Of a stretch of DNA of 64,000 bases, positions 3,899 through 26,861 are shown piece by piece. The translations under genes were made by a program, and so were the position numbers. Position 1 is the first letter of the stretch; every line of letters starts with the position of its first letter. The stretch spans positions 1 through 64,000 of the forward strand of contig CAVZJB010000011.1 in assembly GCA_963775425.1 (NCBI GenBank). The letters run 5' to 3'. A model generated the notes under the pieces. The model was not told the origin of the DNA, did no database searches, and saw only the letters and a list, made by a program, of their open reading frames with translations. This DNA comes from an uncultured delta proteobacterium. Its GTDB lineage: Bacteria; Myxococcota; UBA727; VGSZ01.

Positions 3899-4324
3899 AT
3901 GGAGAACCACCCGAGCGCCAAGTCCAACGGCAAGGCGCCTGACCCCGAGGTGAGCACCCGTCCTCGTCGACGAGCGTTCACCGCCGACTACAAGATGCGC
4001 ATCCTCGCCGAGGTTGACGCCGTCAAGGACAAGGAACCTGGCGCGGTCGGCGCGGTCCTTCGTCGAGAAGGCCTGTATTCGTCGCACCTCACCGAGTGGC
4101 GCCACGGCCGCCAGCGAGGCACGATGGCCGAGTTGTCGAAGAAGCGCGGCCGCAAGTCCAAGAACGACCCTCTCGCCGACGAGAACGAGAAGCTCCGCCG
4201 CGAGAATGAGAAGCTGAAGAAGCAACTCGCGCAGGCCGAGCTCATCATCGATGTTCAAAAAAAAGTCTCCTCGCTCCTGGGCATCCCCCTGAAGAGCCCA
4301 GACGACGACGAGAACGACTCATGA
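3899..4324 (+). CDS. IS3 transposase OrfA
   Basis: RRRAFTADYKMRIL, LRREGLYSSHLTEW, leucine zipper, IIDVQKK on an A8G slippery run at 4257-4265. Confidence 0.9.
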   Translation: MENHPSAKSNGKAPDPEVSTRPRRRAFTADYKMRILAEVDAVKDKEPGAVGAVLRREGLYSSHLTEWRHGRQRGTMAELSKKRGRKSKNDPLADENEKLRRENEKLKKQLAQAELIIDVQKKVSSLLGIPLKSPDDDENDS

Positions 4325-5451
4325 GCGCGGCGGTCGAGGTCATGCCCGCAACCGGCGTCGTCGCCATCCTGACGGCGCTCGGCTTGTCGGTGGCCACCTT
4401 CTATCGAGGACGCAAGTCGAAGGCCCCCGTCGCCGCGAGGCCGACACCCGCCCGCGCGTTGTCGCCGGTAGAGCGGCAGAAGGTTCTCGACGTCCTGCAC
4501 GGAGAGCGCTTCCGGGATCGTGCGCCCGCCGAGGTCGTCGCCGCGCTCGCTACCGAGGGCACGTACCTGGCGTCGGAGCGCACGATGTACCGCGTGCTCG
4601 CCGCGCAGGACGAGGTCAAGGAGCGCCGCCGCCAGCTCGTGCATCCCGAGTACGCGCGACCCGAGCTCGTCGCCACCGCCCCGAACCAGGTGTGGTCGTG
4701 GGACATCACGAAGCTGCTCACCTTCGATAAGTTCGTCTACCTGTACCTGTACGTCGTCATGGACATCTTCAGCCGCTATGTCGTGGGCTGGATGCTCGCC
4801 GCCCAGGAGAGCGCCACGCTGGCGAAGCTGCTCATCGAGGAGACGGTGGCGAAGCACGACGTCGCTCCGGGCGAGCTCACGCTGCACGCCGACCGCGGAG
4901 CGCCGATGCGCAGCAAGTTGCTCGTGGAGCTCTTGGCCAAGCTCGACGTCGCCCGCAGCTTCAGTCGGCCGCACACGTCGAACGACAACCCGTTCTCCGA
5001 AAGCGGCTTCAAGACGATGAAGTACAACCCGAGCTTCCCGAAGAAGTTCCACGGCGACGTCGACGCGCGCGCATTCTGCAAGCCCTATTTCGACTGGTAC
5101 AACAACGAGCACCACCACAGCGGCATCGCCCTGCTCACGCCCGCAGACGTGCACTTCGGGCGGGCGTCAGCCGCCCTGCAGCGCCGTCATGAGGTGAAGC
5201 TCGAGGCTTACCACGCGCACCCAGAGCGCTTCGTGCACGGCCCGCCGCGCATCGAAGAGCTCCCCGGCGCGGTCTTCATCAACCCGCCCACGACGCTCGT
5301 GGCTACGCCGGAGACGGGGTCGGAGCCAGCCCTTGGGCTGGCGACCCCGTCGACGGCCTCCACGCCATCGACGGCGTCACTGCTCGCCACTCTCGACACG
5401 CCGTTCAGTTCGACGGCCGCGTTCACGAACACAGGAGGCGTTGCTCACTAA
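4321..5451 (+). CDS. IS3 transposase OrfB (DDE integrase core), -1 frame relative to OrfA
   Basis: PNQVWSWDIT, DIFSRYVVGW, HADRG, SNDNPFSESGFKT. The -1 frame is open from the A8G site to ATG 4321. Confidence 0.93.
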   Translation: MSAAVEVMPATGVVAILTALGLSVATFYRGRKSKAPVAARPTPARALSPVERQKVLDVLHGERFRDRAPAEVVAALATEGTYLASERTMYRVLAAQDEVKERRRQLVHPEYARPELVATAPNQVWSWDITKLLTFDKFVYLYLYVVMDIFSRYVVGWMLAAQESATLAKLLIEETVAKHDVAPGELTLHADRGAPMRSKLLVELLAKLDVARSFSRPHTSNDNPFSESGFKTMKYNPSFPKKFHGDVDARAFCKPYFDWYNNEHHHSGIALLTPADVHFGRASAALQRRHEVKLEAYHAHPERFVHGPPRIEELPGAVFINPPTTLVATPETGSEPALGLATPSTASTPSTASLLATLDTPFSSTAAFTNTGGVAH

Positions 5452-5684
5452 ATTCCGTCACGCCGATTCTCAGACTCGTTGACAGGTTCCGTACGGCAAC
5501 GAGCGCGTCGACAGGGCGTGCAAGCGCGCGCACCTGGCCGGCGCGCGCAACTACCGGCACGTCGCCGCGATCCTCAAGAACCGCCTCGATGAGGCACCGA
5601 TGCCCGACGCCGTCGACGACAACGGGCCGCCCGTCGACCACGAGAACATCCGCGGCCCTGGCTACTACAACTGAAGGAGAGACC

Positions 5685-6425
5685 GTGTTGACCGAACCAA
5701 CGATTGACAAGCTGAGGAACATCTGGCTCTACGGAATGGCAGACGCGTACGTCGAGCAGCAGAAGAGCAAAGAGGTGGCGAGCATGGACTTCGACGACCG
5801 CTTCGGCCTGCTCGTCGACGCGGAATGGCTGCTTCGGCAGAACCGGCGAACGAAGCGGCGCATGAAGGAAGCGAAGCTGCGGCTCACGCAGGCCTGCGTC
5901 GAGGACGTCGACACCGGCGCCGCTCGCGGCATCGAGAAAGGCGTTCTCATGCGCTTGGCGACGTGCGCCTTCGTCGACGAACACCTGAACGTGATCATCA
6001 CCGGCCCCACCGGAACGGGGAAGACGTACCTGGGCTGTGCGCTCGCTCAGGCCGCCATCCGGAAGAACCGGAGCGCGGTTTACCGGCGCGCATCGAGGCT
6101 CTACGAGGAGCTGGCGCTCTCCCGCGTCGACGGAACGTACGCGAAGCTGCTCACGCGGCTTGCGCGCGTCGACGTGCTCATCATCGACGACTTCGGCCTT
6201 GCTGCGATGAAAGACCAAGACCGCCAGGGCCTCCTCGACGTACTCGAGGACCGCTACGGCAACCGATCGACGATCATCACGACCCAGCTTCCCACCAAGG
6301 CCTGGCACGACTACATCAACGACCCGACCGTCGCGGATTCGATCTGCGACCGGGTTGTGCACAACGCCCACCGCATCGAGCTCAAAGGCCCGTCGCGGCG
6401 GAAGGAGAAGGCCACCAAGGACTGA
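5685..6425 (+). CDS. istB: IS21 helper ATPase IstB
   Basis: GPTGTGKT Walker A, LIIDDFG Walker B, ADSICDRVVHNAHRIELKGPSRR. AAGGAG RBS before GTG 5685. Confidence 0.95.
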   Translation: MLTEPTIDKLRNIWLYGMADAYVEQQKSKEVASMDFDDRFGLLVDAEWLLRQNRRTKRRMKEAKLRLTQACVEDVDTGAARGIEKGVLMRLATCAFVDEHLNVIITGPTGTGKTYLGCALAQAAIRKNRSAVYRRASRLYEELALSRVDGTYAKLLTRLARVDVLIIDDFGLAAMKDQDRQGLLDVLEDRYGNRSTIITTQLPTKAWHDYINDPTVADSICDRVVHNAHRIELKGPSRRKEKATKD

Positions 6426-8989: not shown

Positions 8990-10936
8990 TCACAACGGTT
9001 CGAGCGTCTCCCGGAGCGCCCTGCGCGTTGCGTCTGGCTCCGTGTACCACCGGCGGCCAATCTGGTCGGTGACGCCGATGCGATCGACCTCGTCTGGGTC
9101 GAGCTTTGCTAACGACCTCGCGCCGACTTCCAGCGAGTGACGTTGCCCCGGGTTCAGCGTCTTCTCCGCGGTGGGAAGGCCGTAGTAGTCGCGCGAGAAG
9201 AGAAAGCCAGATCCGTCCTTCTTCAGCAGCGAGAAGGCGACGGAGGGAAGGTAGATCGGGATCGCGTCGTGATTCTCCACGGAGATCACGAGGACGCGCT
9301 CCTTCTCTTGCGGAACGACGTCGCCGGGTACACGTGGAACGGTCATCGAGACGAGACTCGTCGCCTCGATGACGACCTTTGGGAGGGACGTGGATGGCGT
9401 GCTCGCCGTCGTTCCGCGCGTCGGCGTGGTGCGATCGATGCCGACGACGAGGTTCGGCAGGGCAGCGACAAGCTCAGCGATCGATGCGAAGCGCTCGTCC
9501 GGCTTGTGGCGCGTCGCACGGCGAATCACGTCATCGAGCGCGGCACAGGCCTCCTCGGAGAGGAGGTGTCCTCGCGGCACGGGACGTGGGTCGAGCAAGT
9601 CAGGTGTCTGCCGCGTCAGCAAGAACTCAAGGACGCGGCCGAGCGCGTAGATGTCGCTCCGCTCGGTGGCTTGTGAAAGGCCCCCCTGGCTCACTTCCGG
9701 TGCCCGGTAGTTCTCCGTGCCGCCCGCTTCCCTCAGACCGGTCAGCGCCTCGCCTTGTGCGGGCGTCTCCGCGCCACGCTTCGCGAGGCCAAGGTCAGCG
9801 ACGACAACGCGATTTGCTTCTTCGAGAACGAGGAGGTTTCCAGGGCTGATGTCGCGATGGAGAATCGACTGCGCGTGCATCGCGCCGATGCCGGCACATG
9901 CTTCCCGGAAGTAACGCAAGACGCGGGTCGGGCTGTCGCTCGTGAGGGACAGCTCCTTCAGGCTTCCGTGTGCACGGTCCATCACGAGGAACGCGCACTC
10001 TGGCAGGTCCTCGCCGCGGAGCGTCCAGTCCAGCTCCGCGTCGTGAATTCCGACGATGTACGCGTCGCCTTTGAGCAACGTGAGCAGCTCAACCTCTCTG
10101 CGAAAGCGCTCACGCGCCTTCGGGTCAGCTTGAAACGAGAGCTTGATCGCGCGCGGGATTGCGTGCTTCTCGTCGATCGCGCGTGCTTCCCACACTTCCC
10201 CTTGGCCGCCGCGGTTCAGAGGGCGAACCAGCCGCCATTGGCGGAGCTCGTCATCGGGATTGAAGACGTATTCGGGATATCGCTTCTTCTTCGCCTTCTT
10301 CTTTGGCGGTGGGCTCTGCGACGCGGGCTGCGGCTCGACGCGCGTCGGAAAAGAGGCCTCCGGCTCTCCTCGCGTAGAGCGCAGCCGGAATCCATCGCGC
10401 GTCAGGTGCGCGCGCGTTGTCGGCCAAGGACCCATCACGTGCTGCACGTCGAGGACGCCGGCGGCCTCCAGGCCTGCGAGCGCGGTGGCGAAGAGGCCCA
10501 CGTCGTCACCGACGAGCTCCTTGAGGTCCTTCTCTTCGTATTCCTGTTTCGCCTCCTTGAACGCGGCAAGGATGTCGTGCCGCTTCTTGTTCACCGCGAT
10601 TCGGCTGTCGACGCTGAGGACGCTCTCAAAACGAAGGACCCCCGCGGGCTTGATCATCCCCGAGAGTCCGCCCGCCATCGCGTAGTCGCTGTGCTCGAGC
10701 TCATCGAGCGCGACACGCAGTTCCTCCTCGTCGAGCGACGGGAGTGCAGCCACCAACTGCGGCTGCTGCACGAGATTTCCGTGCCCCGCCCGATACGCGA
10801 CATAGAGCGCGCCGAGCACGCCGAAGGTCTTGGCGTCGAAGTCGTTCACCCCTTGATCGATGAACGTCTGCGGCGGTGGTGCCCCGCGCATCGCCTCGAC
10901 CAATTCGTCGTCTGGTAGTTCTTCGCGGTGCGCCAT
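8990..10936 (-). CDS. Hanks-type Ser/Thr kinase with N-terminal wHTH-like region and C-terminal beta domain
   Basis: RGGQGEV, AIK, HRDISPGN, DLGLAK, GTENYRAPE, SDIYALG. Confidence 0.92.
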   Translation of the reverse strand: MAHREELPDDELVEAMRGAPPPQTFIDQGVNDFDAKTFGVLGALYVAYRAGHGNLVQQPQLVAALPSLDEEELRVALDELEHSDYAMAGGLSGMIKPAGVLRFESVLSVDSRIAVNKKRHDILAAFKEAKQEYEEKDLKELVGDDVGLFATALAGLEAAGVLDVQHVMGPWPTTRAHLTRDGFRLRSTRGEPEASFPTRVEPQPASQSPPPKKKAKKKRYPEYVFNPDDELRQWRLVRPLNRGGQGEVWEARAIDEKHAIPRAIKLSFQADPKARERFRREVELLTLLKGDAYIVGIHDAELDWTLRGEDLPECAFLVMDRAHGSLKELSLTSDSPTRVLRYFREACAGIGAMHAQSILHRDISPGNLLVLEEANRVVVADLGLAKRGAETPAQGEALTGLREAGGTENYRAPEVSQGGLSQATERSDIYALGRVLEFLLTRQTPDLLDPRPVPRGHLLSEEACAALDDVIRRATRHKPDERFASIAELVAALPNLVVGIDRTTPTRGTTASTPSTSLPKVVIEATSLVSMTVPRVPGDVVPQEKERVLVISVENHDAIPIYLPSVAFSLLKKDGSGFLFSRDYYGLPTAEKTLNPGQRHSLEVGARSLAKLDPDEVDRIGVTDQIGRRWYTEPDATRRALRETLEPL

Positions 10937-13366: not shown

Positions 13367-14377
13367 GTGAAGCCCGTTCAGACCGGAGTGGGACGCCGCA
13401 TCGTCGAAGCGTTGCGCGCTGTGTTGCCGCCGGCGGTTGCTGTCGAGCATCAGGTGACGCGCGAGGATGCGACGACGGTGTCGATCGGCTCGCGCAAGGT
13501 TCGGGTCGCATGGGCTGGCGCGGGTGGTCTTCGTCAGGTGCGGCCGTTCATCGAGAGCGACGATCGGCCGGACATCGTGGTCGCGCGTCTGATGTCGGCA
13601 GGCGCGCGCGACGCCCTCTCGAAGGCGCGCGTGGGTTGGCTCGACCAAACTGGTGCGGCGGAGATCGCGATCGGGACCCTGATCGTGTCGCGCACGGGGA
13701 AGGCGCCGCCGAAGGAAGAGCGCAAAGCGACCTGGAGCCCTGCAGTCTTTGCCGTCGCGGAGGCGGTGCTGTGCGGCACCGCCCCGACTCTGTCGGCCAC
13801 GGCGAAGGCGACCGGCTTGTCGTCGGGAAGTTGCACCCATGCGTTGCGAACGCTCGCAGAGATGAAGCTGCTCACAAGCACACAAGCGCGCGGACCGCGC
13901 TCCGCTCGACGTGTGGTCGACCCCGACGACTTCCTCGATGCATACGCGGCGGCGGTCGCTGGCGAGACCGCGAAGCTGTCGCTGGTGGTCGGCGTGACGT
14001 GGCAAAACGCAGTGCCGGGGCTGCGCGTCGAAGGCCCGCGGTGGACCGCCGCCGGCCTTGAGTGGGCGGCGACGGGATTGGTGGCGGCGTCGGTGCTCGC
14101 GCCACTCGTGACGAACGTCGGCAGTGCGGAGGTGTACGTGGATGCAAAGACACCCGCTGAGCTTGACGCGTTCGCAGCCCGCGCGGGCCTCACGCCGATC
14201 GAAGGCGGACGACTGACGCTCAAGCCGTTCCCTACCGTCACAGCGCGCCGGATGGCGATGATCACCGATGACATCCGCGTGGCGCCGTGGCCACGCGTCT
14301 ATGCTGACGTGAAGCTCGTCGGCGTTCGTGGCGAGGAAGCGGCCGAGCATTTGCGGGAGGTGACTCGTGGTGGATGA
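13367..14377 (+). CDS. Type IV toxin-antitoxin antitoxin, AbiEi-like
   Basis: Central wHTH and C-terminal PWPRVYADV...GVRGEEAAEHLRE. Overlaps the downstream nucleotidyltransferase. Confidence 0.8.
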   Translation: MKPVQTGVGRRIVEALRAVLPPAVAVEHQVTREDATTVSIGSRKVRVAWAGAGGLRQVRPFIESDDRPDIVVARLMSAGARDALSKARVGWLDQTGAAEIAIGTLIVSRTGKAPPKEERKATWSPAVFAVAEAVLCGTAPTLSATAKATGLSSGSCTHALRTLAEMKLLTSTQARGPRSARRVVDPDDFLDAYAAAVAGETAKLSLVVGVTWQNAVPGLRVEGPRWTAAGLEWAATGLVAASVLAPLVTNVGSAEVYVDAKTPAELDAFAARAGLTPIEGGRLTLKPFPTVTARRMAMITDDIRVAPWPRVYADVKLVGVRGEEAAEHLREVTRGG

Positions 14378-15200
14378 GCTCGAGAGGTCGCGGGCGGCGC
14401 GCGAGATCGCAGAGGCTGCACTCGTGCGTGTGGTGCACCACTACGGAGGCATTCCGGAGATCGTCGTCCTTGGTGGCCTCGTCCCGGAGCTTCTGTGCAG
14501 CGGGAGCGACTCGATGCACGCGGGCACGACCGACGTCGACGTGCAGGTGAACCTCGAGCTCGAGAGCGGCTCCGTGAACGCCGCTCGCTTGGAGGCCGCA
14601 CTCTTGAAGGCCGGCTTCTCGCCGACGAAGAAGGATGTGTGGCGGTGGGCAACGGTCCATGGCGACAAGCGCATGGTGGTGAAGTTCGAGCTGCTCGCCG
14701 ATGACGACAGTCAGCCCGCCGAGGTCGTGTTCAAGTTCAACGACTGCGCGGAGCTTGGGGCGGTGAACTTGCGCGGCACGGGGTTCGCGTCGCGCGACCT
14801 CGTGGTTCGCAAGATGCGTGGCGAGGTCGACGGCGCAATGCGCGAGGTCGACGTCAACGTCGCGGGGCTCGCCGGCTTTCTGCTCGCGAAGGCAGCGGCG
14901 GCCCGTGCGCGCGGTAAGCGGAAGGATTGGTACGACGTCGCGTTCGTGCTCCTTCACAACAACGCGGGCGGGGTTGAGGCGGCCGCGCGAGCTGTGCTCG
15001 CGAAGTTCAAGGGCGACCTGTCCGCAATGCGGCGGACCCTCGACGAGCTCGAGTCGAACTTCCGCGGCCCGAGCGACCAGGGTGCGGAGGCGTACGCCGA
15101 GCAGATGCTGCTCGACCACCCGGATCGCGACGAGGCGACATTGCGCGCCGATGCCGTACTCGCGGTCGCGTCCTTCCACCGAACGCTCTACGCCATGTGA
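14367..15200 (+). CDS. AbiEii-like nucleotidyltransferase toxin
   Basis: VVLGGLVP, HAGTTDVDV, LAK, KRKDWYD motifs. Confidence 0.8.
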   Translation: MVDELERSRAAREIAEAALVRVVHHYGGIPEIVVLGGLVPELLCSGSDSMHAGTTDVDVQVNLELESGSVNAARLEAALLKAGFSPTKKDVWRWATVHGDKRMVVKFELLADDDSQPAEVVFKFNDCAELGAVNLRGTGFASRDLVVRKMRGEVDGAMREVDVNVAGLAGFLLAKAAAARARGKRKDWYDVAFVLLHNNAGGVEAAARAVLAKFKGDLSAMRRTLDELESNFRGPSDQGAEAYAEQMLLDHPDRDEATLRADAVLAVASFHRTLYAM

Positions 15201-15241: not shown

Positions 15242-16168
15242 TCAGTGGGACTTGCGTGTGGCGCGGACGCTGTCCGCAACTCGAAGAACGGTTTCGGCGA
15301 TGACACGGCGTGAGCAGTAGACCTGCGTCTCGGCGCCGAAGACGACAAGCCGGTTGATGCGGTCGACGTGAGGCGCCACGTGTAGTGCGGGCGTCTCGCA
15401 CTGCTCATTGTCGAGACAGCCGACGAAGACGCTGCGCGGGCTCAGCGGAAAGACAGCGTGGAGCTTCCTACCCGCGCTTGCCTCCTTCAGCTCGGTGCCC
15501 TGCGGTGTCACGAGCATCGCTGGGTGGTCGCTCGTCACGTATTCGAATCCAGTCGGCGCGTCGAAGTGGAACCAGCTTGCTTTTACGAGCTTTGGCAAGA
15601 GGTCGCGCACTGGCCGCAGGACGGTATTCAGCAGCGCGGCATCTGGGCTGGTCGGGTTGGCCTCAAGATGGTGCGCGAGCGTGAGAAGCCTGTGTAGAAG
15701 GGGATCTTCGACGTCGCCCGGAGCAACGAGCGGCACGCCGATCGGCGCGAGTGAGGGCGTCGTACGCTCGCGCGTGAGCTGGTACTGCATCGTGCGGCGG
15801 GCGAGGGGCGTACGCGCGATCTGCATCGCGATGAACATCAGCAAGGGAAAGATGTTCGGCTTGGCAGCGATCGGCTGGTCGAGCGCGCGCAAGACGGGCG
15901 CGGCCTCGTCCTCGATCAGCTTCATGAGGGGCTCGATGCGTGGCACCGTCGACGTCGTGTCCGTCTGCTCGTAGAAGTGATGCGCCTTGGCGATACTCTT
16001 GGGGCTGCGCCGGTACACGCGCTTGGCATCGAGATCCGCAACCCACACCTCTTTGTTTGCCTTTGCGGGTCGATCGACAGCGACGAACTTCGCCAAGTAG
16101 AAGCGAGGCGCCCAGTGCTGCTCGGCCTCCGGCGGAGATGCCTGGTTGGTGTGGTTGTCGTCGGCCAT
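15242..16168 (-). CDS. DUF4238-domain protein
   Basis: QHWAPRFYLAKF, HFYE, QIARTP, VTSDHP, FPLSPR. Confidence 0.85.
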   Translation of the reverse strand: MADDNHTNQASPPEAEQHWAPRFYLAKFVAVDRPAKANKEVWVADLDAKRVYRRSPKSIAKAHHFYEQTDTTSTVPRIEPLMKLIEDEAAPVLRALDQPIAAKPNIFPLLMFIAMQIARTPLARRTMQYQLTRERTTPSLAPIGVPLVAPGDVEDPLLHRLLTLAHHLEANPTSPDAALLNTVLRPVRDLLPKLVKASWFHFDAPTGFEYVTSDHPAMLVTPQGTELKEASAGRKLHAVFPLSPRSVFVGCLDNEQCETPALHVAPHVDRINRLVVFGAETQVYCSRRVIAETVLRVADSVRATRKSH

Positions 16169-16242
16169 CGACTCGAACCTCTGACATCGGCGCGGTGGCC
16201 GTTGCATGGAAGAGTACACGGCCACGCCGCGCGCGCGAACCT

Positions 16243-17106
16243 CTAACGCTCGATCGTGTGCTCAAGGAAGCGCTCGGCGGCGGCCGCCTCGCGTTGGCCG
16301 CGGAAGCCGTCGCAGTACGGGCACTCCTCGCGCTTGTCGGTTCGCACCGTCACGCGCGCGAGGTCGCCGCGATAGACGATCACGCGGCGCGTGACTGGCT
16401 GCCCCACGAGCAACATCATGAGCTCCGTGACGCCGAGCGAGGCGACGGTGCCGTTGATGGACACCACGGCGGGGCCGGTGCCGTTGAGCTTGCCCTTCTC
16501 GACGCCGTAGATCTTGTCGCGCGCCGCGCGCAGCGCCGGGTCGACCAGCTCGCGCGCCGCTTGGGCGGAGTCGATCTCGCCGAAGCAGTATGGGCAGCCG
16601 TCGCCGGTGGCGACGATGATGCGCCCGCCGAAGCGGATGCGCCCGTTGTCGTTCTCGGTGTCGGTGGCGAGGTCGATCCAGTTTTTCTCATAGGCGGCGC
16701 ACAGGTGCGTGAGCACAAGGCGCGCGCCGTCGTTGTCGACGCCGGCGAGGGTCCAGTCGGCGCTCTTGATCGCGTCGAACGCGCGCTTCGACTGCAGCGG
16801 CGCGCGGATCGGGTTCACATGCGTCTCGGGGCGGATCCGCTTGATGACGTCGGCGATCACCTCAACCTTGGGACGGCCGACGTCGGCGGGCACCGCGCCC
16901 ACGTAGCGGTTCATGTTCGTGTCGGTGACGTCCTCGTCGTCGATCGGCGTGATGGCGCCGACACCGAGGTAGGCGAGCTCGACGGCGTTGTGCGTGCCGA
17001 GGCCACCGACGCCGGCGAGGACGACGTGGGCGCGGCGGATGCGCTCGAACGCGTCCGCGCCGAAGAGCTGGATGGTTCGATCATCGCGAGTCGTAGCCGT
17101 ATCCAT
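16243..17106 (-). CDS. ThiF/E1-like Ubl-adenylating enzyme (BubD-like)
   Basis: DRTIQLFG, GVGGLG, DDEDVTDTNMNR, GVDNDGAR, two CPYC zinc motifs. Confidence 0.92.
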   Translation of the reverse strand: MDTATTRDDRTIQLFGADAFERIRRAHVVLAGVGGLGTHNAVELAYLGVGAITPIDDEDVTDTNMNRYVGAVPADVGRPKVEVIADVIKRIRPETHVNPIRAPLQSKRAFDAIKSADWTLAGVDNDGARLVLTHLCAAYEKNWIDLATDTENDNGRIRFGGRIIVATGDGCPYCFGEIDSAQAARELVDPALRAARDKIYGVEKGKLNGTGPAVVSINGTVASLGVTELMMLLVGQPVTRRVIVYRGDLARVTVRTDKREECPYCDGFRGQREAAAAERFLEHTIER

Positions 17107-17617
17107 GTCCTTCACCCCATGCGCGTGCGGAGCGGCCCGTGGGCGTGATGACGTCGTCGCCGACGCGCATGCCGACGAGCGTCGCGGGCGCGGTGTTCTT
17201 GTCGCTCCAGGTCAGGGCGTCGTACTCGCCGGGTGCCACGACGACTGCGACGTACGGCCTCTTCGGCAGGCGCCAGAGCACGTGCGGCGCGAATTCGCGC
17301 AAGCCGAGCTCGTCGGACCAGGAGAACGCGCCGCCGCCGTCGAAGGTGTGGCAGTGCACTTCGATGAGCACCGCGCCGAGATCGTGCGCGCGTTTGATCG
17401 CGTACGCGCGCGCGTCGTCGTTCACCTCGATGTGGTAGGCGGTCTGCACCGCATAGTCGGCGGGGGAGAGCAGTTTCTGCTCGATCACCTCCACGGCCGC
17501 GTTCGGCTCATCGAGCCGACCGAACAGGAACGCCGCCTGCTCCACGACGCCGTCGCCTTGGAACAGGTGGCGCATCAGCTGCTCGTGCAGCGCCTTCGCG
17601 ATCGCGAGCGTGTACAT
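17081..17617 (-). CDS. JAB/JAMM metallopeptidase (BubC-like)
   Basis: EQAAFL and EVHCHTFDGGGAFSWSD (HxH...SxxD). ATG overlaps the upstream stop (TGATG). Confidence 0.88.
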   Translation of the reverse strand: MYTLAIAKALHEQLMRHLFQGDGVVEQAAFLFGRLDEPNAAVEVIEQKLLSPADYAVQTAYHIEVNDDARAYAIKRAHDLGAVLIEVHCHTFDGGGAFSWSDELGLREFAPHVLWRLPKRPYVAVVVAPGEYDALTWSDKNTAPATLVGMRVGDDVITPTGRSARAWGEGHGYGYDSR

Positions 17618-18285
17618 CACGCTCCCTCCTGGAAGCGCTTCGCGAAGCTCAGGATCCAGTTGACGAGGTTCGTGCCGCTGGTCGGCGTCGCGCCGGGCTT
17701 CCACGACTCGGGTTGCCACGAGAGCAAGCCCCACTTGCCCGGGAACGGGCACTGCGGCGCGGACGCGGTGAACTTGCGGGGCGCGGTGCCGTTGAAGGTG
17801 ATGGTCGCGGGCACGAAGATGCCGTACGGCTGCGCTCCCGGGTACCCGTTCGGGATCTGGAACGCGATGTCGCACGTCGAGGGCGCCCACTTCTCGGGCA
17901 GCTTCTGGCCGGGGAGCAGCCCCCAGTCCTTGCCGTGCAGCTGCAAGCCCGGGACGACGGCGCGCACGAGCTCGAGCTCCTGCTCGATGCGGTCGCGCCC
18001 GCGCTTGAACTTGACCTTCTTGGCGAAGCCCATGCCGGGCTTGAGCTCGACCGTCTCGCCCGGTGCCAGCGTGCGCTCGTTGTTGTGGGCGTCGATGACG
18101 ATCACGCCCTGCGCGGAATCGAAGCCGCCGAGCGCGGCGATCTGCTCAGTGGTGATCGTCTTCGTCTGCCACGGGTGGAGCTCGCCTTCGACGTTCACGA
18201 AGAACGGCGGCCCCGTATCGTGATCGGGCGGCTTGTTGGGGTTGTCGGGCTTGTTCGGTTCGGCGGTTTGATTTTCCTCGGTCAT
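17617..18285 (-). CDS. Ubiquitin-like (multi-ubiquitin type) domain fused to prokaryotic E2-like domain
   Basis: Beta-grasp-like FFVNVEG...TITTEQIAALGG...LAPGETVEL...KFKRG, then E2-like LPEKW...IAFQIPNGYPGAQP...WGLLSWQP...WKPG...TNL. Confidence 0.8.
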   Translation of the reverse strand: MTEENQTAEPNKPDNPNKPPDHDTGPPFFVNVEGELHPWQTKTITTEQIAALGGFDSAQGVIVIDAHNNERTLAPGETVELKPGMGFAKKVKFKRGRDRIEQELELVRAVVPGLQLHGKDWGLLPGQKLPEKWAPSTCDIAFQIPNGYPGAQPYGIFVPATITFNGTAPRKFTASAPQCPFPGKWGLLSWQPESWKPGATPTSGTNLVNWILSFAKRFQEGA

Positions 18286-18447
18286 CGGTCTCTCTCCTGG
18301 TCGTGCCACTCGTCGTGGCGGTGAATTCAGGACGCACCTCCCCCATCGCGGAGGCGTGCCGTGGCATCCTTCGCGCGAAGACAGACCCGTCCCATCGATG
18401 GCGGCCTTGGCAGCCGCCCACTAGCCATAGTATCCACTCTGGAGCGT

Positions 18448-19629
18448 ATGACTACCGCGGATCCGGATCTATTCACCCTGGCGTCAAACCTTCGGCGGCT
18501 GCGGACGGGCGCAGGGAGGACCCAGGAGGAGCTGGCCGAGGAGGTCGGGCTGTCACGCGCCGGCTACCGGAACATCGAGCTGGGGGAGTCGTGGCCGAAG
18601 GAGGAGACGCTGCACCACATCGCGCGCGCGTTGGGCGTGTCGGTGCACGGACTGCTGGCGGCGCCCACAGTCCTGAAGCACGTGCGGTTCCGGAGTCTCA
18701 AGCGGCTCAAGCGGCGCGAAGACGTGCTCCATCAAGTTGGGCAGTGGCTCAAGGACTACCGCGAGCTCGAGATACTGCTGAACGAGCCGCCGAAGATGAA
18801 CAAGCTGAAGGAGCTCGAGCCACGCGTACGCGAGCTCCGTAAGAAAGGCATGCCCGCCGTGGCCGCGATGGTGCGGAAGGAATTCGGGCTCGACGCGCGG
18901 CTGCCGGTCGACGACATCTGCGGTGTGCTTGAAGCGCACGGCGTGAAGGTTCACTCGGTTGCGTGGGAGACGGACGCGTTCTTCGGGCTGTCGGTGTCGG
19001 AGGAAGACGGCGGCCCCGCGGTGATCGTGAACGTCTGGGATCGAATACCCGTTGAGGCCTGGATCTTCAGCGCCGTCCATGAGCTCTTCCACTTGCTCGC
19101 ACACATCGGGTCCTATCGTGTCGAGGACGATCAGGAGGTCGACGCGGACCATCGTGAGGGTGGTCAGGAGCACGAAGCCGACGAATTCGCGGGGCACTTC
19201 CTGATGCCGCAGGAGTACTTCAAGGAGAAGTGGGAGGAGCTTCGCGGTTTTGCGACCTACGATCGCGTGTTGCGGGTGAAGCGGATGTTCCGCGTGAGCT
19301 GGCGAACGGTGGTCTATCGGCTCGCGCTCGAGCTTCCGACAGAGCAGAAGAACGAGCTTTGGCGGTTCATGAACGGCGAGCACAAGCGCCGCACGGGTCA
19401 GTCGCTGACGAAGCACGACGAGCCTGAGGGCATCGACAAGAGCTGGTTTCAGCGCGGGCGCGGAGCCGAGCCGGCGAAACTCGACGAGCATGACTTCGAG
19501 GACAACCGCCTACGCGCGCTCGTACGGCGCGGCGTCGAGGAGGGCGTCATCTCTCTCGGGAGGGCGGCGGAGATCTTGTGCATCGAGCAAAAGGAGATGC
19601 GCGCCGTCGCAGCGGCGTGGTTTGGGTGA
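18448..19629 (+). CDS. XRE HTH fused to ImmA/IrrE (M78) metallopeptidase (CapH+CapP-like)
   Basis: NLRRLR...TQEELAEEVGLSR...IELG HTH, VRFRS, FSAVHELFH (HExxH), EHEADEFAGHFLMP. Confidence 0.92.
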   Translation: MTTADPDLFTLASNLRRLRTGAGRTQEELAEEVGLSRAGYRNIELGESWPKEETLHHIARALGVSVHGLLAAPTVLKHVRFRSLKRLKRREDVLHQVGQWLKDYRELEILLNEPPKMNKLKELEPRVRELRKKGMPAVAAMVRKEFGLDARLPVDDICGVLEAHGVKVHSVAWETDAFFGLSVSEEDGGPAVIVNVWDRIPVEAWIFSAVHELFHLLAHIGSYRVEDDQEVDADHREGGQEHEADEFAGHFLMPQEYFKEKWEELRGFATYDRVLRVKRMFRVSWRTVVYRLALELPTEQKNELWRFMNGEHKRRTGQSLTKHDEPEGIDKSWFQRGRGAEPAKLDEHDFEDNRLRALVRRGVEEGVISLGRAAEILCIEQKEMRAVAAAWFG

Positions 19630-19635
19630 GGCTCC

Positions 19636-20118
19636 ATGTTCTTCGTCGTCGCGGATGTGCTCATGGACTACGTGGGCGCCGACATCGGGCTGCTCGCCGC
19701 GGTGTCCCGCAGCGTTGGCGCAGTGCACGTTGCGTCCGTCGTCCTGCGGATCGTCGACGAGCTCGATCGACGTGCGTGCGGTGACCACGCGCTTGTCGTC
19801 GTCGATGAGCCCCTGGATGTACTGCGCGAGGCGTCGGGACAGCGAGGGCGCATCGCCTTCGAAGACCGCGTCTGCTTATCGCTCGCAGCAACCGCGGGGG
19901 GCGTTTGCGTGACAAACGATCGCGCCGTGCGCGATGCGTGTGCGGCGAAGGAAGTTGCATCGAAGTCCGGGCTTGACCTGCTTTTGGCGCTGCGGCTTGC
20001 GGACGCGGCGACGGAAGCAGAAATCGAGAAGACCGCGAAGAAGATGCGCGAGGGCAACAGGACGCATGTGACGGCTTCGATGCTCGACGAGTTCCTTGCG
20101 CTTCTCCCAAGGCGCTGA
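19636..20118 (+). CDS. Degenerate PIN-domain protein
   Basis: ADVLMDY, AFEDRVCLSLA, VTNDRAVR. Starts 6 bp after the XRE-peptidase gene. Confidence 0.7.
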   Translation: MFFVVADVLMDYVGADIGLLAAVSRSVGAVHVASVVLRIVDELDRRACGDHALVVVDEPLDVLREASGQRGRIAFEDRVCLSLAATAGGVCVTNDRAVRDACAAKEVASKSGLDLLLALRLADAATEAEIEKTAKKMREGNRTHVTASMLDEFLALLPRR

Positions 20119-20209
20119 ATCACGGCGAGGTTCGCGTGCCTGTGCAGCTTGTCGGTTCAACGTTCGTCGGGCGCCTTTACAGACGCGGCGGGCGCGCGAT
20201 GATCCGCGT

Positions 20210-20926
20210 ATGAAGCAGAAGAAGCCATCGAAGGCGACCGAGAAGCTGTTCGACATCATCAACTTCGAGGTCACAAACTTCACTTGGGACGTGATCGTAT
20301 GGCGCGATCTCTTCAACGAGGCGACGATTCCGATCCTCAACAGGCGGACCGGAAACCTGTTCACGATCTTCCAGCGTCGCCTCTTCGACGGGCACCACAT
20401 CCGCATCTTCCGGTTGCTCGATAAGTCGCGCGGCGATCAGAGCGCGTCGATGTACGCCCTCTCCGCCGCGGTGAGACGCGACGGGTTTGACGACGTTGCG
20501 AAGGCGATGAGCAAGCACCTGCGCGAGATGAAGAAGCTTGCAGTGGGCATCGAGTGGCGTCGGAACAAGCTCATCGGCCACGTCGATCTCGACGCGCGGC
20601 TCGGCGATGTGTCACCGCCCACCGAGCCGACCTTCGAGACCGTGGCCGAGATCTGTCGCTTGGCGTCCCGCGTGGTGAACGAGTACTCGACGACGCTGCG
20701 CGGGGAGAAGCCAGGGGAGAGGCCGACGATCGCGCACGACTTTGCCCAGTACCTCCTCGACAATGGGCAGGATCCGAGCGCATTCCGCCTCGACGAGACA
20801 CACGCGCGCGCGCTGGTTCACGAGCTTGAGCTCGCGCAGCGGTGGCGCGATGAGCACCCAGATCATTGGATGACGCCCGAGATGAAGGCCGCGAAGAGGC
20901 GCTGCGAGTCACTCAGCGACGAGTGA
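20210..20926 (+). CDS. HEPN AbiU2-like protein
   Basis: IFRLLDK...S and WRRNKLIGHVD motifs. Confidence 0.7.
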   Translation: MKQKKPSKATEKLFDIINFEVTNFTWDVIVWRDLFNEATIPILNRRTGNLFTIFQRRLFDGHHIRIFRLLDKSRGDQSASMYALSAAVRRDGFDDVAKAMSKHLREMKKLAVGIEWRRNKLIGHVDLDARLGDVSPPTEPTFETVAEICRLASRVVNEYSTTLRGEKPGERPTIAHDFAQYLLDNGQDPSAFRLDETHARALVHELELAQRWRDEHPDHWMTPEMKAAKRRCESLSDE

Positions 20927-22091: not shown

Positions 22092-22264
22092 GTCGGGCCT
22101 CCTGCGGCTGGGGATGCAAAGCCGCGAACTTCCTCCTCGGGGATCCGCGTGCGCCGTGACACATCGTGTCCGACGCCGGTGGTGACGGGGGTTCCTCGGT
22201 CGTGGTCGAACCGGCGGCCTGCGGCCGGTTCCCAGCTGGAGCGTGCGCGCGTAGATTGGACCAA

Positions 22265-23092
22265 ATGAACCAGCTGCCGTTCAACACCGCGATTGCGACC
22301 GCACTGGCGAACCTCGTCGACGCAGACCGAACGAAGCCGAGCCACAGCGACCTCGACATGTTGTTCGCGCGGACGAAATTGGCGCGCGCCGACCCGAGGC
22401 GAGCACCCGAGGAGAGAGTGGGCAAGATGAAGAGGCTGCGCGGCGTGTTGACCTACGCGCTTGAACAGGACGTCGCCGCGGGGAAGCAGCTGATGCAGGA
22501 GTTGCTCGGCGTGATCGCGGGTGCGCGTGGGTTCGACAAGGAGAGCGAATTCTTTGTTGGAGATGCCGCGTTCTCGTCGCTCCGCGCGGCGTTCGCTGCC
22601 GAAGGCTGGGAAGTGGACCGCGACGGAGCGTTAAGGCCCCGCGTGCTCGATGCCCTGAGCGGTGCCGCACTCACGAGCGCCCTCGACGCCTACGTGAAGC
22701 GTGCGCAGCGGGGCTCGCTCGATGCGGCACTTGTAACGGGGACCGGCAAGGACCTTGTCGAAGCGACGGCGCGGCACGTCATCGTCGAGCGAGGTGGAAG
22801 CTACCACGAGACGATGCCGTTTCCGGGCACGTTGCTGAACGCCTTTCTCGCCGTTGGGATGGCGCCCCTTGCGCCGAACCAACTGCAGTCCATCACGCAG
22901 ACGCTCGACGCCGACCCGACAAAGAGGCTGCAACAGCTGCTCTATCTGGTCGCAACGGTCGCGAACACGCTGCGCAACAAGCAGGGCACCGGCCACGGTC
23001 GGCCGTTCCCGCCGACGGTATCTGACGACGACGCGCATGCGGCTGTGGAAGCGATGGGGTTGGTTGCTGAGTCGCTGCTCCGGCGGCTCTGA
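22265..23092 (+). CDS. Abortive infection family protein (Abi_C)
   Basis: GTGKDLVEATARHV and LRNKQGTGHGR. Confidence 0.82.
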   Translation: MNQLPFNTAIATALANLVDADRTKPSHSDLDMLFARTKLARADPRRAPEERVGKMKRLRGVLTYALEQDVAAGKQLMQELLGVIAGARGFDKESEFFVGDAAFSSLRAAFAAEGWEVDRDGALRPRVLDALSGAALTSALDAYVKRAQRGSLDAALVTGTGKDLVEATARHVIVERGGSYHETMPFPGTLLNAFLAVGMAPLAPNQLQSITQTLDADPTKRLQQLLYLVATVANTLRNKQGTGHGRPFPPTVSDDDAHAAVEAMGLVAESLLRRL

Positions 23093-23114
23093 AAGCCCTA
23101 CGACGAGGTGCTGG

Positions 23115-24290
23115 TTGCCGAGAGGGAAGCGCACTACATCGCACCTGCTCCAGGAACTCCTTGCAGAGCGCGTTGTCGACCGCGTTTTGCTCGACGAGAT
23201 GTTCGCGGAGTTCCCGCGCGAGGATGTTCACCTCGAGTACAAGAGCGGCCGATTGCTCGATGACGTCGACGCCGCGAGGGTCGAAATTCGGCGGCAGATC
23301 TGCGGCTTCGCCAGCGCGGACGGAGGCGTTCTCGTGATTGGCGCGTCAGATCCGGAAGTCGACCGAGAAACAGGCGCACTTCTGAAGCCGCCCGCGGTTG
23401 TTCCCGCGCACACGCACGTCGGAGGACAGGAACTTCGCCACTGGATCCGCGACTTGCTGGTGTCGATGCACCACGCTTTCGGTCAAGCACCGGTCTTTCC
23501 AGAAGCTATCCCCGTCCCCGGCGGGTGCGTGCAGCTCGTCGTGGTGGCGAAGGCGCCGGCTGCGATCGCGGTGCACGAGGATCGTCCGCGCTACTACTTC
23601 CGCTTCGGCGATGCGACGCGTGAAGCAGACCCATGGCTGATCACTGATCTCCACCTCGGCCGCCACCGGCAGCCGCGCTTCGTCCCTCGGATCCCAGCGG
23701 AGTACCGCCACCCAAAGGGACCTGCGGAGTACCTCAAGGGAGACGGCGCAAGCGACGACAGAGGATTCTCGCTGCGCGTCGACGTCGAGAACGATTCGCT
23801 CGCCCACGCGCGCGACGTGCGGGCCGGTATTCTCGGCCTTTGCCGTCAGCCGAGCACGCGAGCCATCTCGACGGCTTTGCGCGAACGGGTCTCCATCGAC
23901 GAGAAACGCGGAGCAACGCTCTGCTATTCGCAGCTTGTTGTCTTCGACCCGAAGCGGGGCTCGCGCGATACCGCGGACGCGATCTACCCCTTTGACGTCG
24001 TCCACTACGCGATGACCGAGCGGTGGCTGCTCCCCGCAGTCTCTCCAACTCCCGAGCGCCTTGACCTTTGGTGGGGCGCGATGTTCCTGGTCGCGGCCGA
24101 GCGGGAACCGAGCTGGTTTCAGGTAACCATCCTCCACGGCCACAAGAAGCGCGGCGCTGCACAGGACTTCCACGTCGACATCTTTCCGACGTGGAACGAG
24201 CGGCCTCGCGTGGCTGTGGAGCAGGAGCCGCTGCCGCCCGACCACGTTAGAGCGACGGCTCGTGAGATGCGCGAGCGCGGTCGCCGGTAG
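23115..24290 (+). CDS. AlbA_2/Schlafen-like domain protein with unknown C-terminal domain
   Basis: REDVHLEYKSG, ICGFASADGGVLVIG, YYFRFGD. TTG start after GAGGTG is inferred. Confidence 0.78.
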   Translation: MPRGKRTTSHLLQELLAERVVDRVLLDEMFAEFPREDVHLEYKSGRLLDDVDAARVEIRRQICGFASADGGVLVIGASDPEVDRETGALLKPPAVVPAHTHVGGQELRHWIRDLLVSMHHAFGQAPVFPEAIPVPGGCVQLVVVAKAPAAIAVHEDRPRYYFRFGDATREADPWLITDLHLGRHRQPRFVPRIPAEYRHPKGPAEYLKGDGASDDRGFSLRVDVENDSLAHARDVRAGILGLCRQPSTRAISTALRERVSIDEKRGATLCYSQLVVFDPKRGSRDTADAIYPFDVVHYAMTERWLLPAVSPTPERLDLWWGAMFLVAAEREPSWFQVTILHGHKKRGAAQDFHVDIFPTWNERPRVAVEQEPLPPDHVRATAREMRERGRR

Positions 24291-25290: not shown

Positions 25291-25569
25291 ATGAACGAAG
25301 AGCTGTCGGACGCCGGCGCGGTCGAGCGCGCGGTCCACAAACGCGCTGGCGAGCAGCCGAGCCCGGAGGCGCTCCCTGCGGTTCTCACCGTCGACGAGCT
25401 CGCCGCGTTCCTGCGCCTCAACCGCAAGACCGTGTACGCGGCCATCGCCCAGCGCGCGATCCCCGGCGCGCGACGCATCGGCGGAATCATCCGCGTCGAC
25501 CGCGACGTGGTGCTAAAGTGGCTCGCAGGTGAAGGTCGCGTCTCGTCGCCGTCGCGGAGGAATCCATGA
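25291..25569 (+). CDS. Excisionase-like HTH_17 protein
   Basis: VLTVDELAAFLRLNRKTVY...IPGARRIGGIIRV. GGAGG RBS, overlaps the integrase start. Confidence 0.88.
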   Translation: MNEELSDAGAVERAVHKRAGEQPSPEALPAVLTVDELAAFLRLNRKTVYAAIAQRAIPGARRIGGIIRVDRDVVLKWLAGEGRVSSPSRRNP

Positions 25570-26771
25570 CGGTGAGGAGAGAGAAGCGGATCGACCCGGG
25601 AACGGGAAGCGTCCGTGAGTTTTGGATGGTCGACGTCGACGTGGAGATGCCCGACGGGAAGCGTCAGCGAGTGCGCAAGACTTCCCCGGTGCAGGCGAAA
25701 CGCGACGCCGAGAGATACGAGCTGGAGCTTCGTCGAGCGATCCTCGACGGCAGCTACATGAAGGAAGAAGAGGTTCCGAAGGTCGTGCCGCTCGTGAAGG
25801 AGTTCGTCCCTGTGTTCATCGAGGGCCACTGCAAGGCGGAGCAGTTGAAGCCGTCTTACGCGGCGTCGATGAAGCACGTCCTCAACCACCGCATCGTGCC
25901 GCGGATGGGGGACAAGCGACTGAACGAGGTCACGGCGAGTGACGTGCAGAAGATGAAGGGCGAGCTCGCGTCGCTCTCCCCAAAGACGGTGAACAACGCG
26001 CTCGCGGCGTTGCGCGTGATGCTGAGGAAGGCAGCCGAGTGGGACGTCATCGACGACGTCCCTTGCAGGATCAAGCTGCTCAAGGTGCACAAGGAGGAGA
26101 TGAAGTTCTACGACTTCGACGACTACGAACGGCTCGTCGAGGCCGCAGGACAGGTCGACGCGCGTCTCCAGCTCGCTATCCTGCTCGGCGGTGAGGCCGG
26201 GCTGCGCATGGGCGAGATGGCTGCGCTCGAGTGGGGACGGATCGTGTGGGCGCGAAACACGATCGTTGTCGCGGCGTCCGACTGGCGCGGGCACGTGACG
26301 AAGACGAAGGGCGGCAAGGTGCGTGAGGTGCCGATGACATCGAGGCTCGCTGCGGCGCGGCGCGCGCACAGCAAGGTTCGACGCATCGACAAGGACAGGG
26401 ACCTGGTGTTGATGCTCGACAACGGCAAGCCGTTCCATCGGGACGCCTTCCGCAAGGGCATAATGCGCGTGGAGCGAAGGGCGGGGCTCGAGGTGACCGG
26501 CAGGGTCCACGTGCTTCGCCACACGTTCTGCGCGCATCTGGCGATGCGTGGCGCGCCTGCGAAGGCGATCCAAGAGCTCGCCGGGCACGCGGACCTCAGC
26601 ACCACCATGGGGTACATGCACCTGACGCCGACGGCGCGCGCAGCCGCCATCGCGCTGCTCGAGCCTCGTCGAGAGCAGCAGAGTTACGGCAACCTGACGG
26701 CAACGGAAGCCACCGACGCGGTGGTGGTGGCGATCGGAGAAAAGAAAACCCTCGGCGGACCGAGGGTTTAG
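25566..26771 (+). CDS. Tyrosine recombinase/integrase
   Basis: GLRMGE, TKTK, HVLRHTF, LAGHADLSTTMGY catalytic set is complete. Confidence 0.96.
   Translation: MTVRREKRIDPGTGSVREFWMVDVDVEMPDGKRQRVRKTSPVQAKRDAERYELELRRAILDGSYMKEEEVPKVVPLVKEFVPVFIEGHCKAEQLKPSYAASMKHVLNHRIVPRMGDKRLNEVTASDVQKMKGELASLSPKTVNNALAALRVMLRKAAEWDVIDDVPCRIKLLKVHKEEMKFYDFDDYERLVEAAGQVDARLQLAILLGGEAGLRMGEMAALEWGRIVWARNTIVVAASDWRGHVTKTKGGKVREVPMTSRLAAARRAHSKVRRIDKDRDLVLMLDNGKPFHRDAFRKGIMRVERRAGLEVTGRVHVLRHTFCAHLAMRGAPAKAIQELAGHADLSTTMGYMHLTPTARAAAIALLEPRREQQSYGNLTATEATDAVVVAIGEKKTLGGPRV
26740..26769 (-). terminator. Intrinsic terminator downstream of tRNA-Asp
   Basis: Perfect stem AAACCCTCGG-CGGA-CCGAGGGTTT with a U-rich tail on the minus strand. 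Confidence 0.75.
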
Positions 26772-26784
26772 AAGAACCTAAAGC

Positions 26785-26861
<77 letters not shown>

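Follow-up and report, generated by a model that had tools for sequence, protein, structure and literature searches.

Among the described bacterial systems that conjugate ubiquitin-like proteins (Ubls), those closest to the locus analysed here are the Bub operons. According to the preprint devoted to them (bioRxiv 10.1101/2024.11.21.623953), a Type I Bub operon comprises BubAB, a fusion of a Ubl with an E2 enzyme, BubCD, a fusion of a JAB peptidase with an E1 enzyme, and BubE, a DUF6527 protein. The reference system, formerly classified as 6E.1/DUF6527, is that of Citrobacter sp. RHBSTW-00271 (Ye, Gong, Chambers, Corbett; PDB 9ea4, 9ea5, 9ea8, 9eae, 9eav). The JAB domain is described there as cutting BubAB behind a conserved glycine; a cysteine is missing from the crossover loop of the E1, which needs an invariant Tyr370, while the E2 works via Ser333 with His335 and Asp299, a partner being deemed important for oxyester reactivity. 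The same text states the presence of bubE for all Bub operons, as whose marker it serves, and finds CapH together with CapP beside 31% of 544 of them. In Type II Bub (6E.2; BubA, BubBD, BubE) the conjugation is likewise cysteine-free, but the E2 and E1 are fused, there is no JAB, and BubE is always present. The Bil systems differ in that they rely on catalytic cysteines in the E2 and in the E1, the latter, BilD, being a multidomain protein (IAD-AAD-CYS). Here we report the analysis of a 64,000-nucleotide stretch of DNA of an uncultured delta proteobacterium (contig CAVZJB010000011.1, positions 1 to 64,000; hereafter the window), in which three overlapping genes between positions 16243 and 18285 encode a Ubl-E2 fusion, a JAB peptidase and an E1. 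We find this operon to be a real and intact member of a Bub-like branch that lacks BubE and has JAB and E1 split into two genes. We consider it probable that these three genes make up a cysteine-free Ubl conjugation operon of the Bub lineage, and that the adjacent DUF4238 gene and the divergent pair of an XRE-IrrE gene and a PIN-like gene are separate neighbouring modules.

The region from 15242 to 20118 holds six genuine genes, four on the minus and two on the plus strand; all of them had been listed in an initial annotation of this DNA, and they were found at the coordinates given here, with the three core genes overlapping on the minus strand. The Ubl-E2 fusion (17617-18285, minus strand, 222 amino acids) has its ATG start at 18285, directly preceded by AGGAGAGAG, and its stop codon overlaps the start of the JAB gene by one base (TGATG). 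The stand-alone, BubC-like JAB/JAMM metallopeptidase (17081-17617, minus strand, 178 amino acids) overlaps in turn with the stand-alone, single-domain, BubD-like E1 adenylyltransferase (16243-17115, minus strand, 290 amino acids; ThiF family, E 2.6e-34) by 26-35 nucleotides, depending on the choice of the E1 start codon. The initial annotation had likened the locus to Bub/Bil ubiquitination operons, and its Bub affinity is borne out by the structural comparisons described below, in which the nearest solved relatives of all three gene products are the Citrobacter Bub proteins.

The fusion is a BubAB-like pre-protein composed of a disordered N-terminus, a beta-grasp domain (residues ~27-96) and an E2/UBC-like domain (~97-222). 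In Pfam it matches Multi_ubiq (31 bits, E 2.8e-7). Its AlphaFold2 model, built from 29 relatives, has a mean predicted local distance difference test (pLDDT) score of 85.9 and exhibits two domains, one a beta-grasp and the other an alpha/beta fold like that of an E2, separated by a low-confidence linker (residues 92-95). The best folds in the PDB are Citrobacter BubB (9eae_C; TM score 0.69 on the target, 123 columns) and BubA (9ea8_B; 0.66), followed by bacterial multi-ubiquitin proteins and then by eukaryotic E2s and ubiquitin. Both the beta-grasp and the UBC fold, on which the ubiquitination-like interpretation depends, are thus predicted for this protein; the likeness to BubA and BubB was revealed by the fold search, as a phmmer search of the fusion against the PDB returned only chance-level matches. 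A search found 88 relatives. In all 29 relatives that were aligned, Arg95-Gly96 at the domain junction and Ser189-Trp190 in the E2 are invariant, and the E2 domain has neither a conserved Cys nor a conserved His. When the E2 of the genome's other Bub-like locus is used as a bridge, Ser189 falls on the WSRH stretch of Citrobacter BubB that holds S333. The codon of Ser189 (17719-17721, minus strand) therefore marks the predicted nucleophile of an E2 acting through an oxyester, while the codons of Arg95-Gly96 (17998-18003, minus strand) mark the predicted site of JAB cleavage and the C-terminus of the mature Ubl.

The position of the junction is corroborated by the relatives in which the two domains occur apart. 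A profile of the Ubl-E2 family run against 1.84 billion representative proteins yielded 695 matches at E<=1e-3, 324 at E<=1e-10 and 62 at E<=1e-30. Among the best 150 of the 695, only 28 span both domains, 87 comprise the E2 only, 26 the Ubl only, and nine are fragments; in this set the E2-only proteins start just past the Ubl/E2 junction and the Ubl-only proteins stop at it. Of nine Ubl-only relatives that were fetched, eight terminate exactly in ..RG and one carries a single extra residue. In many relatives the mature Ubl is thus made directly, with its end at the junction glycine. Two further features of the family may be mentioned. The C-terminus of the E2 (window 17620-17640) is conserved as R-F-x-E/Q-G-x, with a nearly invariant penultimate glycine, which could be a second site of processing or recognition. 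The window's fusion has a single beta-grasp domain, while five longer relatives (P0096, P0098, P0100, P0103 and P0104; 341-367 amino acids) have additional beta-grasp-like stretches N-terminal to the Ubl-E2 unit; these extended N-termini indicate that the branch also includes multi-Ubl forms, as do the published Bub Ubls.

The JAB protein of the window has no Pfam match of its own, and the NCBIfam and PADLOC searches were likewise empty; of the 38 members of its family, however, 23 match Prok-JAB. When the profile of the family was compared with the PDB, Citrobacter BubCD was the sole match (E 1.4e-7), with the Glu, HxH and SxxD motifs aligned, and the corresponding residues of the window protein, E26, H88-x-H90 and S99-x-x-D102, are invariant in all 38 members. 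When residues 24-222 of the fusion were modelled together with JAB, the predicted complex reached an ipSAE score of 0.84, while the best of three controls stayed at 0.00; the mark of this complex is attained by 58 out of 80 solved complexes and two out of 110 mismatched pairs. The contacts agree between runs by at least 64%, the partner has a pLDDT of 90, and fusion residues 90-98, i.e. the stretch that includes the junction, contact E26, E86, H88 and residues 99-102 of JAB. Since a similar complex, BubCD-BubA (9ea8), has already been solved, this agreement may merely mirror the likeness to it.

In the E1, Y203-G204, R70, D127, the G-loop and two CxxC pairs are invariant in 38 of 38 family members. 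The crossover loop of the window protein contains no Cys, and its Tyr203 (codon 16507-16509, minus strand) is the predicted nucleophile. The E1 profile scores almost equally against BubCD (101.6 bits) and MoeB (101.7 bits), but only the BubCD alignment covers the crossover loop. The near-equal scores, together with the retained zinc cysteines, would also suit a sulfur-carrier or cofactor pathway, in which a ThiS/MoaD-like protein is served by a ThiF/MoeB-like enzyme. This we regard as the least probable of all the explanations considered: the E1 is always accompanied by the E2 domain and JAB, separate ThiF-family genes exist elsewhere in the genome, and the operon is situated in a mobile defence island. 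No thiamine or molybdopterin genes were found in 82 downstream open reading frames (ORFs) of related loci or in the conserved flanking clusters, so a link to sulfur or cofactor biosynthesis, the possibility against which the initial annotation was to be checked, finds no support.

The arrangement of the operon was studied in the best 80 of 347 metagenome relatives and in three genome loci; a pattern scan of genome contigs found two relatives. Seventy loci containing both the fusion and the E1 were reduced to 59 groups at 95% nucleotide identity. All 59 have the order Ubl-E2, JAB, E1, with JAB and E1 in separate frames, and in 58 of them a single match covers both the Ubl and the E2 domain. A close relative of the Ubl-E2 protein is present in only two of the 401 genomes sampled from the phylum. 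The order Ubl, E2, JAB, E1 is the same as that of BilABCD, JAB and E1 are separate in both, the Ubl and E2 are separate genes in many relatives, and Bil systems likewise occur in defence islands, which brings up the question whether the locus could be a Bil (ISG15-like) system. We judge this very unlikely, because the cysteines typical of the Bil E1 and E2 are missing here, none being conserved in the E2 family and none being present in the loop of the E1, which is a single adenylation domain of 290 residues instead of a large multidomain enzyme, and because the closest folds of the fusion are BubB and BubA.

One difference from the published Bub operons is the lack of BubE. DUF6527 was not found among 82 ORFs downstream of the operon (from 41 loci out of the 51 in which 800 bp or more of downstream sequence were available; 11 further loci of a Tn7 lineage were omitted as redundant), nor in the conserved flanking clusters, and no match over the cut-off occurs in the window's own genome, which is 94.6% complete. 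The same search was positive in 16 of the 401 phylum genomes, where DUF6527 lies beside JAB-E1 or E2-E1 fusions; the search therefore works, and its failure in the window's genome is meaningful. Beyond the E1 there is no conserved downstream gene at all, except for the Tn7-like tnsA, tnsB and tnsC of one lineage. This set is found in 12 of the 51 loci; it begins about 300 bp past the E1 stop codon, with a conserved ORF of 92 amino acids in between (L059:8032-12609; similarly in L064, L066, L067, L069, L074, L076, L082, L084, L086, L087 and L088), and the 3' end of the operon may be, or lie at, a Tn7-like attachment site. Defence genes follow the operon in about 19 of the 41 loci: restriction-modification, GmrSD, SIR2, Mrr, ThsB-TIR, Schlafen, HipA, Fic or nuclease/helicase genes.

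Taken feature by feature, the window's operon resembles Type I Bub in the fusion of the Ubl to a Prok-E2_E-type E2 with a conserved junction glycine, in the BubC-like JAB with its E/HxH/SxxD site, in the short ThiF-like E1 with an invariant tyrosine and no crossover-loop cysteine, in the invariant serine of the E2 in place of a cysteine, and in the frequent association with regulators of the CapH/CapP class and with mobile or defence loci. It differs in that JAB and E1 are two genes and not a BubCD fusion, in that BubE/DUF6527 is absent from the branch (both in the flanks and in the window's own genome), in that the E2 serine, which is followed by Trp, has neither a His at the +2 position nor a conserved Asp partner, in that the E1 retains two CxxC pairs, and in that the fusion contains one beta-grasp domain and an E2 below the Pfam family cut-off. 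With Type II Bub it shares the cysteine-free conjugation and the Multi_ubiq-type Ubl, and it differs from that type in each of the points of gene content given above. The initial annotation had called the layout a variant, and this holds for the split of JAB and E1, to which the lack of BubE, the lack of the E2 histidine and the retained zinc cysteines can be added; the Ubl-E2 fusion, which had been counted among the unusual features, is the standard BubAB arrangement. No description of a BubE-less split Bub form was found in the literature covered, supplements and subscription papers (Iyer, Burroughs, Aravind) being outside its scope.

A second Bub-like locus of the same genome has a different organization. 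It is located on contig C9 at ~13.9-19.1 kb (L095:4882-10141) and comprises genes for a 665-residue protein with no family match, a Ubl-E2 fusion (Prok-E2_E 60 bits, with FSWH at the serine), a fused JAB-E1 of 480 amino acids that is BubCD-like (E 7e-34 to 9ea4), and, in convergent orientation, an XRE-IrrE fusion. DUF6527 is missing from this locus too, and a same-family genome (G084, L120) retains the four genes with 59-89% identity.

By analogy with the Citrobacter system, the three proteins may be envisaged to act as follows. The operon would be expressed as Ubl-E2, JAB and E1, and JAB would cut the fusion past Gly96, to release a Ubl of ~96 residues ending in Lys-Arg-Gly and an E2 of ~125 residues. 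A homodimer-type E1 would then adenylate Gly96 with the use of ATP, and the Ubl would pass as an oxyester to Tyr203 of the E1, from there as an oxyester to Ser189 of the E2, and finally to lysines of the targets. Because BubE is lacking, JAB would be the only peptidase on hand for the reversal of conjugation. Expression is probably repressed by the divergently encoded XRE-IrrE protein and would be released upon DNA damage or infection. To our knowledge, Bub systems are the only ubiquitin-type cascades known to operate through tyrosine and serine oxyesters and not through cysteine thioesters.

While the genes, folds, motifs, conservation, order and context of the operon are established here, several observations weigh against its reading as a functional Bub-type pathway under the control of XRE-IrrE. 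The steps of cleavage, adenylation and oxyester transfer are carried over from the biochemistry of Citrobacter Bub. The match of the fusion to Prok-E2_E amounts to 20 bits and stays below the Pfam cut-off of 25. Among the 29 aligned relatives, neither a His nor an Asp that could serve as a partner for Ser189 is conserved in the E2, the invariant Tyr154 and Arg217 being candidates for what takes their place; the +2 position is variously Q, S, A, T, G, E or L, as opposed to the His of WSRH in BubB and of FSWH in the other E2 of the genome. Tyr203 of the E1 is two residues away from Y370 of BubCD in the hidden Markov model alignment, and the E1 keeps the four-cysteine site of the MoeB/ThiF type, which BubCD lacks at the aligned positions. 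An E1 tree of 54 rows (38 E1s of the split family, five of Type I and six of Type II with BubE from the phylum, four fused forms with no BubE detected, and one MoeB-like outgroup) groups the split-family E1s by a branch with 59% support in the Shimodaira-Hasegawa-like approximate likelihood ratio test (SH-aLRT), and the relation to Type I and the deep order are not settled by it; the Type II E1s are distant, their branch measuring 5.16 changes per column. An inverted-repeat search found no operator repeat in the 75-162 bp divergent intergenic region between the operon and the XRE-IrrE gene. Finally, no Bub operon has so far protected E. coli from phage, according to the preprint (bioRxiv 10.1101/2024.11.21.623953), so that the case for a defence role of the operon is made from its context alone.

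The gene that follows the operon encodes a DUF4238 protein (15242-16168, minus strand, 308 amino acids; PF14022 E 4.7e-29) with a full-length domain (positions 2-279 of 281). The initial annotation had suggested it as an effector or substrate of the Ubl pathway, which would make a single integrated system of the whole minus-strand cluster. The gene is indeed on the same strand, 74 bp past the E1 with the ATG start at 16168, or 17 bp past it with a GTG at 16225, and no terminator-like site was called in between. On the other hand, the two components do not co-occur in either direction: tblastn found DUF4238 in none of the 59 dereplicated relatives of the operon, PF14022 matches none of the 82 downstream ORFs of the 41 loci, and the operon's nearest relative, in the genome G149 from the same taxonomic order, has no DUF4238 in the 790 bp that remain past its E1. 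Conversely, the domain is present in 23 of the 401 phylum genomes, the window's included, and at the 23 further loci with DUF4238, which come from 22 other genomes, there is in no case a Ubl, JAB or E1 within 1.5 kb. Besides, the third-position G+C of the gene is 0.80, compared with 0.92 for the E1 and Ubl-E2 genes, and a lone DUF4238 protein from a P2 hotspot has been reported to protect E. coli against T7 (Rousset et al. 2022, PMC9122126). The missing co-occurrence makes DUF4238 incidental to the operon by the standard of the initial annotation itself and largely refutes its proposed role in the Ubl pathway, which we consider quite improbable. By analogy with the P2-hotspot protein, which it resembles as a lone full-length PF14022 protein in a defence island, the DUF4238 gene is most likely a separate neighbour with a putative function as a single-gene defence; it differs from that protein in that no model of PADLOC-DB v2 matches it. 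With the remaining DUF4238 proteins from this phylum it shares only 24-31% identity.

On the plus strand, an XRE helix-turn-helix domain fused to an IrrE/M78 metallopeptidase (HTH_3 + Peptidase_M78) is encoded at 18361-19629, possibly with its true start at ATG 18448, and is followed, seven bases 3' of it, by a PIN-like gene (19636-20118, 160 amino acids). The statement that the operon faces a helix-turn-helix metallopeptidase of the CapH/CapP class finds support in the presence of both domains, in fused form, and in the divergent orientation. The fusion carries HELFH at residue 240, and in PADLOC it is matched over its full length by 14 RmrA models (best E 1.6e-29) and, less well, by capP (7.9e-13) and capH (9.7e-6); against the NCBIfam spr1629 repressor/antitoxin it reaches 65 bits, far short of the cut-off of 335. 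RmrA is the Zn-peptidase antitoxin of the RosmerTA system, according to its description (bioRxiv 10.1101/2022.05.11.491447). The intergenic region shows scattered identity only to that of the nearest relative, and a scan of it for promoters and terminators gave nothing informative.

The PIN-like protein is more difficult to classify. It has no Pfam match up to E 10 other than a chance-level one to NYN, and no match in NCBIfam or PADLOC; the AlphaFold2 model made from three sequences (pLDDT 56) was unusable. A word-indexed search retrieved only the protein itself and one copy with 89% identity. In a language-model atlas it lies at 0.95 beside clusters in which 21-29% of the members are annotated as PIN and 12-41% as DUF3368, and D7, D11, E76, D77 and D95 are conserved in three of three sequences. 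The gene is real and conserved, while its assignment to the PIN fold, suggested by the atlas and these acidic residues, should be taken as a lead, and it is designated here as a putative toxin-like partner of XRE-IrrE. A profile of the family was positive in 15 of the 401 phylum genomes. Apart from the window's own locus there are 12 full-length PIN-like loci, 11 of which have an XRE-IrrE gene directly upstream on the same strand (40-64% identity), the twelfth beginning at a contig edge. The Ubl operon accompanies the pair in one of the 11, that of G149; the other genomes with the pair have no match to the Ubl-E2 profile. As the pair thus recurs at ten further loci of the phylum with no Ubl operon, XRE-IrrE and the PIN-like gene are an autonomous two-gene module, which is RosmerTA-like, and a role for them as a dedicated part of the ubiquitination-like system is not supported. 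The pair is similar to RosmerTA and other XRE-COG2856 pairs in that an RmrA-type match is followed by a small toxin-like gene and in that the pair recurs alone, and dissimilar in that no RmrT model matches the PIN-like gene.

There remains the alternative that XRE-IrrE is a dedicated, fused switch of the CapH/CapP type and the PIN-like nuclease a second effector arm, i.e. that the five genes form one system. In G149, whose taxonomic order is that of the window's genome but whose family is another, the whole block, PIN-like and XRE-IrrE facing Ubl-E2, JAB and E1, is kept at 48-64% amino-acid identity. Moreover, a divergent CapP-like peptidase gene occupies the place of XRE-IrrE in 23 of 49 groups with at least 800 bp of upstream sequence (one representative matches PADLOC capP at 1e-55), XRE-IrrE itself matches the capP and capH models, the second Bub-like locus of the genome likewise has an XRE-IrrE fusion, and CapH and CapP are common beside Bub operons, in the proportion quoted at the outset from the preprint (bioRxiv 10.1101/2024.11.21.623953). 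The evidence on the other side is that the best PADLOC match of XRE-IrrE is the RosmerTA antitoxin and not a Cap protein, that just one of the 11 paired loci has the operon, and that the PIN-like gene occurs in none of the best 80 of the 347 metagenome loci. We regard the five-gene system as possible, but clearly less probable than two separate modules. The CapH/CapP position of XRE-IrrE and the five-gene block of G149 make a regulatory link between the two modules conceivable in about the same tentative measure, and we therefore treat XRE-IrrE both as a candidate switch of the Ubl operon and as a candidate antitoxin-like partner of the PIN-like gene.

Not all relatives of the operon face a peptidase of this kind. 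A protein of ~220 amino acids with a C-terminus resembling sigma-70 region 4 is encoded upstream in 16 of the 49 groups, and either this protein or a CapP-like one is found in 34 of the 49. In this alternative divergent module the sigma-like gene is accompanied by one for a ~140-residue partner with no family match (examples are L037:2147-3224, L053:1204-3072, L062, L065 and L078), and in some cases a CapP-like M78 peptidase gene lies behind them. The module looks like a protease-controlled sigma/anti-sigma switch.

The wider surroundings agree with the defence-island setting that had been proposed for the operon. The first 26 kb of the window have a G+C content of 0.63-0.67, compared with 0.67-0.79 beyond, and a tyrosine integrase gene (25566-26771) adjoins tRNA-Asp(GTC) (26785-26861) at the place where the G+C content climbs from ~0.66 to 0.70-0.73; this is likely to be the end of a mobile island that holds the defence cluster. 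Other defence genes of the island are located at 217-1983, 8990-10936, 14367-15200, 20096-20926, 22166-23092 and 22854-24290, and its genes include PDC-S39-like (DUF7380/DUF4209), a PD-T4-6-like Ser/Thr kinase, an AbiEii-like nucleotidyltransferase, HEPN_AbiU2, Abi_C and a weak match to Schlafen AlbA_2, with insertion sequence (IS) elements of the IS21 and IS3 types at 2467-6425.

One could go further and speculate that a toxin-antitoxin type module, composed of an RmrA-like repressor-protease and a PIN-like toxin, was recruited in this lineage by a Ubl pathway devoid of BubE, to which it would supply the sensor and a second effector, such that one proteolytic event triggered by damage or phage would activate protein tagging together with an RNase. 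The whole family would then represent a third type of Bub, with a single JAB responsible for maturation as well as removal of the Ubl, and with an E2 serine that functions with no histidine. We offer this as a rather improbable scenario, to be ranked well below the five-gene system discussed above.

As outlined above, the preferred reading is that of a three-gene Bub-like operon with independent neighbours, and the existence of such a branch bears on how Bub systems should be defined. It shows that BubE, the published marker of all Bub operons, is dispensable, that the fusion of JAB with E1 is not obligatory, and that the E2 serine apparently manages with no histidine partner. Since BubE is absent from the branch, a census based on DUF6527 will have missed it, with its 62 representatives at E<=1e-30 and 695 at E<=1e-3 in the protein library searched. 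The minimal set of components consists of one pre-protein and two enzymes, or of four small proteins in those relatives in which the fusion is split. Being so small, it lends itself as a minimal system to the study of oxyester reactivity and of the targets of the tag.

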